This document shows, piece by piece, positions 34,559 through 35,425 of a stretch of 64,000 nucleotides of DNA (position 1 is the first letter of the stretch; each line of letters begins with the position of its first letter). Position numbers and translations under genes: made by a program. A model generated the notes under the pieces. That model worked only from the letters and a program-made list of their open reading frames with translations, had not been told where the DNA came from and did not search any database. Origin of the DNA: Escherichia coli (GTDB lineage Bacteria; Pseudomonadota; Gammaproteobacteria; Enterobacterales; Enterobacteriaceae); assembly GCF_013315695.1 (NCBI RefSeq), contig NZ_CP054353.1. One strand, given 5' to 3'.

Positions 34559-34661
34559 CCTCCCCAAAAGCCTGCCCGTGGGCAGGCCAGGGTAAAAATA
34601 GGGTGCGTTGAAGATATGCGAGCACCTGTAAAGTGGCGGGGATCACTCCCCGCCGTTGCTC

Positions 34662-34814
34662 TTACTCGGATTCGTAAGCCGTGAAAACAGCAACCTCCGT
34701 CTGGCCAGTTCGGATGTGAACCTCACAGAGGTCTTTTCTCGTTACCAGCGCCGCCACTACGGCGGTGATACAGATGACGATCAGGGCGACAATCATCGCC
34801 TTATGCTGCTTCAT
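34662..34814 (-). CDS. hokC: type I toxin HokC (Gef), 50 aa
   Basis: MKQHKAMIVALIVICITAVVAALVTRKDLCEVHIRTGQTEVAVFTAYESE: Hok-family membrane toxin. Confidence 0.9.
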   Translation of the reverse strand: MKQHKAMIVALIVICITAVVAALVTRKDLCEVHIRTGQTEVAVFTAYESE

Positions 34815-34871
34815 TGCTCTCTTCTCCTTGACCTTACGGTCAGTAAGAGGCACTCTACATGTGTTCTGCAT
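34662..34871 (-). CDS. mokC: MokC, overlapping translational-coupling reading frame for hokC (69 aa)
   Basis: In-frame upstream extension MQNTCRVPLTDRKVKEKRA-MKQHK...; same stop as hokC. Confidence 0.75.
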   Translation of the reverse strand: MQNTCRVPLTDRKVKEKRAMKQHKAMIVALIVICITAVVAALVTRKDLCEVHIRTGQTEVAVFTAYESE

Positions 34872-34917
34872 ATAGGGGGCCTCGGGTTGATGGTAAAATA
34901 TCACTCGGGGCTTTTCT
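34863..34917 (+). ncRNA. sokC: SokC antisense RNA (antitoxin of hokC), approximate coordinates
   Basis: Placed by offset from hokC using the K-12 arrangement as recalled (antisense to the mokC start region); ends not determined from sequence. Confidence 0.45.
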
Positions 34918-35425
34918 CTATCTGCCGTTCAGCTAATGCCTGAGACAGACAGCCTCAAGCACCCGCCGCTATTATATCGCTCTCTTTAACCCATTCTGTT
35001 TTATCGATTCTAATCCTGAAGACGCCTCGCATTTTTGCGTAATCAATCTTTAGTACATTGTTTATTTTAACTCTTATGTGCGTTTTCATTTACAAAAGTT
35101 GAGATTATGAACAAGAGGTTTAAGTTATGCCTGAATGGTGAGTTATTACTGGAGAAAGTAATAGAAGATACAAAATATTCTTGTACAGAATTGAATTTTC
35201 TTTTTGTGAGGAAAAATGTTTATAAATCAATGAGTGATATTTAAAATCGACACACTTTTTGAAACACGATACCTCCACACCCGGGGGTAAAAGTAATCTG
35301 CGATCTCCATCACGCTTTGCCATTCACCTTTAAATATACTTTCTGAGTCGTTCTTAATCAAAATGAATTATCTGATGTATTGATTTCTATGGAACCATAA
35401 AAACAATGAATGGAGAGCATATTAT

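Follow-up and report, generated by a model that had tools for sequence, protein, structure and literature searches.

The IS186-free hokC/mokC/sokC locus of an Escherichia coli chromosome

The window, the whole 64,000-nucleotide stretch of Escherichia coli DNA analysed here, very probably carries an uninterrupted, ancestral-type hokC/mokC/sokC type I toxin–antitoxin locus, which belongs to the E. coli core chromosome, would resemble plasmid R1 hok/sok in its mechanism and has no link to the porin–sulfatase island beside it. No insertion sequence (IS) lies in the gap between dnaJ, which ends at 34558 on the plus strand, and the hokC stop codon at 34662–34664 on the minus strand. The gap measures 103 bp, bearing out the IS-free interval of about 100 bp given in the preliminary description of this DNA. 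Further upstream on the plus strand is dnaK (31423–33339). The IS-free arrangement of hokC is already known and was described in 1999.

Architecture of the hokC locus

The hokC gene (34662–34814, minus strand; AUG at 34814, stop codon at 34664–34662) encodes a 50-residue Hok/Gef membrane toxin, MKQHKAMIVALIVICITAVVAALVTRKDLCEVHIRTGQTEVAVFTAYESE. It was identified from its open reading frame and from a match to the Pfam family HOK_GEF (PF01848; 85.5 bits, E = 1.8e-24, cut-off 22). The 69-codon mokC frame (34662–34871, minus strand; AUG at 34871–34869) is in frame with hokC and runs through it, and on the hok-family model translation of hokC would be coupled through mokC. The mokC Shine–Dalgarno sequence, GAGG (34880–34883, minus strand), is located 8 nt 5′ of its AUG; that of hokC, AAGGAG (34824–34829, minus strand), is located 9 nt 5′ of its AUG, a spacing like that in R1. 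In strain MS 21-1, which is 100% identical to the window here, the coding sequence is annotated as hokC/mokC toxin.

The leader of the transcript, 153 nt, is matched by Rfam family RF01794 at 34964–34812 on the minus strand (116.9 bits against a gathering score of 59, E = 3e-27). The match spans the entire model, positions 1–157, with model position 1 falling on 34964. This family also matches R1-type hok, hokA and hokE on the sense strand of the hok mRNA, and the match therefore represents the hokC leader and not the Sok RNA. Such agreement greatly exceeds what chance would produce. The preliminary description had ended the locus at 34920, which is too short: that position corresponds merely to the 3′ end of sokC, whereas the mRNA 5′ end is placed at 34964 and the −10 box at 34976–34971.

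Regulatory elements were placed by alignment to the R1-type hok/sok locus. The hokC promoter has a −10 box, TATAAT, that can be read directly in the sequence (34971–34976, minus strand; 6 nt 5′ of +1) and a poor −35 region (ACAGAA, compared with ACAAAA in K-12). The −10 box is kept in the B2 and O157 alleles, and the sequence 5′ of it diverges. The predicted mRNA 5′ end (+1 at G34964) carries the tac element, GGGUGCUUGAGG (34953–34964, minus strand), assigned from position 1 of RF01794, from alignment with the R1 +1 and from the predicted folds. Two further elements on the minus strand were assigned from folds: ucb, AAGCCCC (34907–34913), the predicted partner of the mok Shine–Dalgarno sequence in the full-length RNA and of tac in the truncated RNA, and dcb, GCCUC (34847–34851), the predicted partner of the mok Shine–Dalgarno sequence in the 334-nt RNA.

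Past the hokC stop codon, the minus strand carries three successive elements. The first is a GC stem-loop, GGCGGGGAGUGAUCCCCGCC (34635–34654; hairpin GGCGGGGATCACTCCCCGCC), which is predicted to end the processed hokC mRNA and is the target of IS186 in K-12; its counterpart in the R1 alignment is the hairpin GGCGGGCGCAGGCCCGCC, directly after the hok stop codon. The second is the putative fold-back inhibition element, fbi, CUUCAACGCACCC (34601–34613), which is predicted to pair with the mRNA 5′ end and lies 21–33 nt past the stem-loop, between it and the third element. This last element is a terminator-like GC hairpin followed by UUUU (approximately 34570–34588), just past the dnaJ stop codon. 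It is present in the minimum-energy fold of the 401-nt RNA, has a comparable counterpart 3′ of fbi in hokE and in R1-type hok, and is likely to form the end of the primary hokC transcript. The hairpin that had been quoted earlier as an intact 3′ element is thus present at 34635–34654, but it is not the fold-back element, which is fbi at 34601–34613.

On the opposite strand, the 59-nt SokC antisense RNA is assigned to 34863–34921 (plus strand), with coordinates carried over from the K-12 annotation (16952–17010), and overlaps the mokC start region. Its putative promoter (34828–34856, plus strand; −35 TTGACC, 17-nt spacer, −10 CACTCT) is identical to that of K-12 and aligns with the R1 sok promoter (TTGCGC/TATCCT). 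SokC is predicted to have an unpaired 5′ tail of 9 nt and a hairpin bearing a U-rich tail (−23.1 kcal/mol, z = −3.9). A simple consensus scan of 34500–35100 for promoters and terminators missed both the hokC and the sokC promoter as well as the terminators; we therefore infer both promoters from homology.

Among the closest known systems is the hok/mok/sok (parB) locus of plasmid R1, which has the same gene order and spacing and the same elements (tac, ucb, mok Shine–Dalgarno, sokT, dcb, hok Shine–Dalgarno, 3′ GC stem-loop and fbi). The alignment with K-12 and R1 that had been proposed for tac, fbi and sokT finds every hok-family regulatory element in place. The mRNAs are also of similar length (398 nt for R1 hok, about 370–400 nt for hokC). 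The two loci differ in that hokC is chromosomal and has a shorter leader, whereas R1 hok is plasmid-borne, and in the phase of mok: mokC and hokC share a reading frame (57-nt offset), but mok and hok of R1 do not (58-nt offset). They differ too in plasmid stabilization, an activity of R1 hok/sok that is not reported for hokC. The hokA/sokA and hokE/sokE loci of strain NRG857c, where hokE is tandemly duplicated, share with hokC the 5′ end GGGUGC and the 3′ order of GC hairpin, fbi and terminator, but occupy other chromosomal sites and encode diverged toxin sequences.

Predicted RNA switch

The transcript ends, 3′ processing, action of SokC and toxicity proposed for this strain follow the model established for plasmid R1 hok/sok. 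A weak promoter (−10 box at 34976–34971) would drive minus-strand transcription from G34964. In the full-length RNA of about 370–400 nt, the 5′ tac element would pair with the 3′ fbi element (34601–34613), closing the molecule, and this closed form would be untranslatable, its mokC Shine–Dalgarno sequence being held by ucb. Slow 3′ trimming to the GC stem-loop (34654–34635) would then yield an RNA of about 331–334 nt that may refold into the tac/ucb and mok-SD/dcb helices, becoming translatable and, at the same time, susceptible to SokC. This antisense RNA (34863–34921, plus strand) would pair with the mokC start region and block translation of mokC and hence of hokC. On loss of SokC, the 50-residue HokC would enter the inner membrane and depolarize the cell.

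A refolding switch of this type has been published for hok mRNAs, and unconstrained folding of the hokC RNA reproduces it in silico. The 401-nt full-length RNA (34964–34564) folds at −168.6 kcal/mol (z = −7.0; 0 of 100 shuffled sequences fold as well), with nucleotides 1–12 paired with nucleotides 352–364 (tac/fbi) and the mokC Shine–Dalgarno sequence paired with ucb. In the predicted fold of the 334-nt truncated RNA, these pairings are replaced by tac/ucb (nucleotides 1–8 with 52–58) and mok-SD/dcb (nucleotides 82–86 with 114–118). As a positive control, the same method recovered the known tac/fbi pairing of R1 (nucleotides 1–7 with 390–396). For the truncated R1 RNA it fell short of the published mok-SD/dcb helix, and the fold predictions are therefore supportive but not decisive.

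Comparison across paralogues argues for the tac/fbi pairing through conserved position and compensating changes. The fbi element lies 20–27 nt past the GC stem-loop in hokA, hokC, hokE and R1, and it starts at mRNA nucleotides 350–353 in hokA, hokC and hokE. Changes at the mRNA 5′ end are compensated in fbi (GGGUGCU/GCACCC in hokC and hokA, GGGUGCC/GGCACCU in hokE and GGCGCUU/AAGCGCC in R1). By itself, the hokC tac/fbi duplex has only a modest advantage over duplexes formed with shuffled tails, 30 of 500 of which reach its energy. Overall, the RNA architecture and the toxin reading frame appear intact from sequence and folding, and the locus is plausibly regulatable.

IS186, distribution and activity of the locus

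The K-12 MG1655 locus, hokC (gef)/mokC/sokC (sof) (b4412/b0018/b4413), occupies the same position between dnaJ and nhaA and is 98.5% identical over 408 bp. The two chromosomes are opposite in two respects: MG1655 has IS186A in the 3′ stem-loop and is without the 4-kb porin–sulfatase segment upstream of hokC. In MG1655, IS186A is located between dnaJ and hokC, at 15387–16731; the element itself (1339 bp) sits inside the hairpin GGCGGGGATCACTCCCCGCC and is flanked by a 10-bp target duplication, GGATCACTCC, which corresponds to 34640–34649 here. The window thus contains the empty IS186 site. Reading the K-12 junctions confirmed the preliminary description in that IS186 lies 3′ of hokC, where it parts fbi from the body of the mRNA: the insertion splits the 3′ stem-loop and shifts fbi and the terminator 1.3 kb away, in agreement with a published statement that the IS disrupts fbi and mRNA processing. 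In silico, a 644-nt K-12 transcript reading into IS186 adopts the truncated-like form alone, with no tac/fbi pairing. Pedersen and Gerdes (1999; PMID 10361310) is the work cited for the IS inactivation of hokA, hokC and hokE in K-12.

The IS-free form is the majority state, and K-12 belongs to an atypical minority. Of 5426 complete E. coli genomes, 5425 have the hokC region, and a probe spanning the IS186 site matches without interruption in 3814 (70%). By junction probes, about 821 genomes have IS186 oriented as in K-12 and about 943 have it reversed, a sum about 150 above the 1611 interrupted genomes; local BLAST excluded simple cross-matching as the cause of this excess. Strain STEC276 carries IS186 in the opposite orientation with an identical 10-bp duplication. 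Because both orientations thus occur with the same duplication, IS186 has entered the GGGG-N6-CCCC hairpin at least twice independently. An apparently different 750-bp insertion in MLI104K2 was rejected as a corrupted assembly, with G/C homopolymer noise that runs into a true right end of IS186. Most E. coli, and this strain among them, therefore carry an architecturally complete hokC/sokC, a point useful for annotation, and the K-12 state at hokC should not be generalized to the species. On the role of chromosomal hok loci, the window offers no new lead over the 1999 publication and later surveys.

The suggestion that an IS-free hokC may be functional is essentially published, and the functional question has been partly addressed. 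According to work citing Pedersen and Gerdes (1999, Mol Microbiol 32:1090), the IS-free hokC/sokC of strain ECOR24 has the same arrangement as here, with conserved regulatory elements and a transcript of about 330 nt that matches the 331–334 nt predicted for this strain. A 2025–26 preprint citing that study describes the ECOR24 hokC as showing neither post-segregational killing nor activation by rifampicin, and reports its authors' suggestion that hok loci on chromosomes are inactive. A 2006 paper with Gerdes as co-author terms the ECOR loci ‘active’. Secondary sources on the 1999 study thus partly conflict (‘no PSK, inactive’ and ‘active’). The suggestion of function consequently holds for the RNA architecture and the toxin reading frame, which are intact, and is weakened by the reported lack of post-segregational killing from the IS-free hokC of ECOR24, even though ECOR loci are elsewhere called active.

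The negative reports on ECOR24 speak for a reading that we consider possible but doubtful, in which the locus is an intact but physiologically inert relic: transcribed and processed, with HokC never toxic from a single chromosomal copy and IS186 of little consequence. The poor −35 region of the hokC promoter is in line with this, as is the tolerance of IS186 in the 3′ hairpin by about 30% of genomes. Four observations oppose it. The transcribed region is nearly invariant between distant phylogroups, whereas immediately 5′ of the −10 box identity falls to 85%; for the B2 and O157 alleles identity is about 99%, and the two leader substitutions of B2 lie in hairpin loops. Expression of HokC is toxic (2025–26 preprint). 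According to a CRISPRi preprint, knock-down of sokC is strongly deleterious even in IS186-bearing K-12. Finally, R1 hok kills from one chromosomal copy when Sok is absent. We prefer the reading of an uninterrupted locus with an R1-like mechanism, with two qualifications: R1-style delayed killing may not arise from hokC, given the reports on ECOR24, and the equation of an IS with a dead locus and of its absence with a live one is too simple, because sokC knock-down is deleterious in K-12.

A bolder interpretation, for which we see a rather small chance, is that the two forms are selected states and that the hairpin is not a mere mutational hot spot. The IS-free form would be a functional delayed-activation toxin with a role unrelated to plasmids or islands, and IS186 insertion would be a recurrent adaptive rewiring. 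If so, the IS186 allele would lose the reservoir of inert mRNA yet retain SokC-controlled toxicity.

Substitutions and the neighbouring island

Point mutations in the mok ribosome-binding site, fbi and tac had been named as features that would speak against a functional locus, and they were looked for by comparison with K-12 after removal of IS186 and one copy of the duplication. No change affects the mok Shine–Dalgarno sequence, the mok AUG, the hok Shine–Dalgarno sequence, tac, ucb, dcb or fbi, and K-12 has exactly the same hokC coding DNA and sokC promoter. Cryptic inactivation of the IS-free locus by regulatory point mutations could be argued from three substitutions in the transcribed region, one near the terminator (34589) and two around the mokC start, where it overlaps SokC (34867 and 34877), and from a fourth at 34996 in the weak −35 region. 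The change at 34867 replaces Leu in K-12 with Gln here at MokC residue 2 and is the sole difference in MokC. We regard such inactivation as very unlikely. SokC is encoded in cis, so the substitutions at 34867 and 34877 alter both strands and retain SokC–mRNA complementarity; the B2 allele has both of these bases and the O157 allele has that at 34877; and 2044 genomes match the region at 99% identity or more.

Upstream of hokC, homology to K-12 stops at 35038–35043 and restarts at 39086, delimiting an island of about 4 kb (35044–39085) with a G+C content of 34–49%. It contains genes for a Tsx/OmpK-like porin (35426–36187), a sulfatase (36207–37700) and a 426-residue protein with an IS1/IS1595-type zinc-binding domain (37794–39074). 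Neither direct nor inverted repeats were found at the ends of the island. The preliminary description had proposed that hokC stabilizes this island. On that account, hokC would be an addiction module for 35044–39085, killing cells that lose it, and several observations could be read in its favour: the junction is only about 75–80 bp upstream of the hokC transcription start, the IS-free interval occurs in 328 of the 341 genomes that share the junction type of the window, and a paper on the AIEC strain NRG857c notes an IS-free hokC listed as ‘close to GI’. The association of 328 in 341 carries little weight, because the IS-free form is the 70% majority anyway and the island genomes are phylogenetically related.

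The proposal is contradicted by distribution, position and retention. The hokC region is found in 5425 of 5426 genomes, whereas the island sulfatase, counting any allele, is found in 1277, and K-12 and O157:H7 keep hokC in the absence of the island. An addiction module would be co-inherited with the element that it guards and would stabilize it, a pattern that the distribution of hokC does not fit. Furthermore, both hokC and sokC are on the conserved backbone, outside the junction at 35038–35044, so loss of the island would spare the antitoxin gene, unlike what an addiction module requires. Together with the report that an IS-free hokC gives no post-segregational killing, and with the absence of repeats at the island ends, these data leave a stabilizing role for hokC scarcely credible. 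The history of the island points the same way: the versions of its three genes in B2 strains such as JJ1886 are only 81–90% identical, and this divergence between lineages suggests that the island is old rather than recently acquired.

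IS186 at the hokC 3′ stem-loop

The hokC 3′ stem-loop (34635-34654) is a landing site for IS186, and one that has been used recurrently. The copies in K-12 MG1655 (region L001, 3391-4729) and in STEC276 (region L004, 1163-2501) lie in opposed orientations, and the 10-bp duplication, GGATCACTCC, is the same in both. Junction-probe counts across complete E. coli genomes place IS186 at hokC in the K-12 orientation in ~821 genomes and in the opposite orientation in ~943. These two counts sum to 1764, ~150 above the 1611 genomes that lack a contiguous dnaJ-hokC interval; at 80% coverage, the junction probes return more records than genomes (861 versus 821 and 959 versus 943). 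The GGGG-N6-CCCC form of the hokC stem-loop is shared by the hokE 3′ hairpin (GCGGGGAGCAAUCCCCGC).

In STEC276, an IS150 also lies directly upstream of hokC (L004 2776-4145), and hokC is thus flanked on two sides, by IS186 and IS150. In MLI104K2 (NZ_CP116925.1), dnaJ and hokC are separated by ~700 bp of G/C homopolymer noise (region L005, 1790-2470), annotated as a 'hypothetical protein'. We rejected this annotation as a real gene: the stretch terminates in a genuine right end of IS186, which identifies it as an IS186 copy whose assembly is corrupted.

Divergence upstream of hokC and the island ORF

Compared with the B2 strain JJ1886 (L007), identity drops abruptly at a point lying precisely on the upstream side of the hokC −10 box (diverged stretch, window 34965-40493). 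On the conserved side, identity is 99.3% for dnaK, 98.6% for dnaJ, 100% for the hokC coding sequence and 98.7% for the leader, versus 85% for 34965-35043, 90% for the porin, 89% for the sulfatase, 81% for the 426-amino-acid open reading frame (ORF) and 92.4% for nhaA on the diverged side. This drop suggests that the boundary is either an old recombination breakpoint or the edge of a long-standing polymorphic segment reaching into nhaA.

The 426-amino-acid ORF (37794-39074, + strand) occupies the nhaA-proximal end of the island. A Pfam search of its product gave no match, and in NCBIfam the sole match is to one short IS1/IS1595-type N-terminal zinc-binding domain (residues 80-111). Its B2 counterpart, to which the 81% identity refers, is annotated 'hypothetical protein'.

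Reading frames and RNA annotation

The mokC and hokC genes share a reading frame, with an offset of 57 nt (34814-34871, − strand), whereas in R1-type loci mok is out of frame with hok, with an offset of 58 nt. Because the two are in frame here, initiation at the mokC AUG would give a 69-residue HokC with an N-terminal extension. Within hokC mRNA, UACG is a reported TadA A-to-I editing site that converts Tyr to Cys, with 9% editing in K-12 (PMC12214031); the motif is kept in the window, where codon Tyr47 (UAC, followed by G) lies at 34674-34676 (− strand).

The Rfam family RF01794, named 'sok antitoxin', matches the sense strand of the hok mRNA, over the leader between +1 and the hok AUG, rather than the Sok-encoding strand, both in the window (34812-34964, −) and in the R1-type locus (L003 250-426, +). 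Automated annotation based on RF01794 would therefore give 'sok' the wrong strand and the wrong extent.

In NRG857c, hokE is present as a tandem duplicate (region L009, 348-1275), its two complete loci ~504 bp apart and each carrying a leader, GC hairpin, fold-back inhibition element (fbi) and terminator. Further Rfam matches in the window, all on the + strand, are the tpke11 small RNA in the dnaK-dnaJ spacer (33350-33427, 69.6 bits), the thr operon leader (18122-18241, 121 bits) and the ES003 small RNA (57102-57154, 87.4 bits), all of which are previously known E. coli features.
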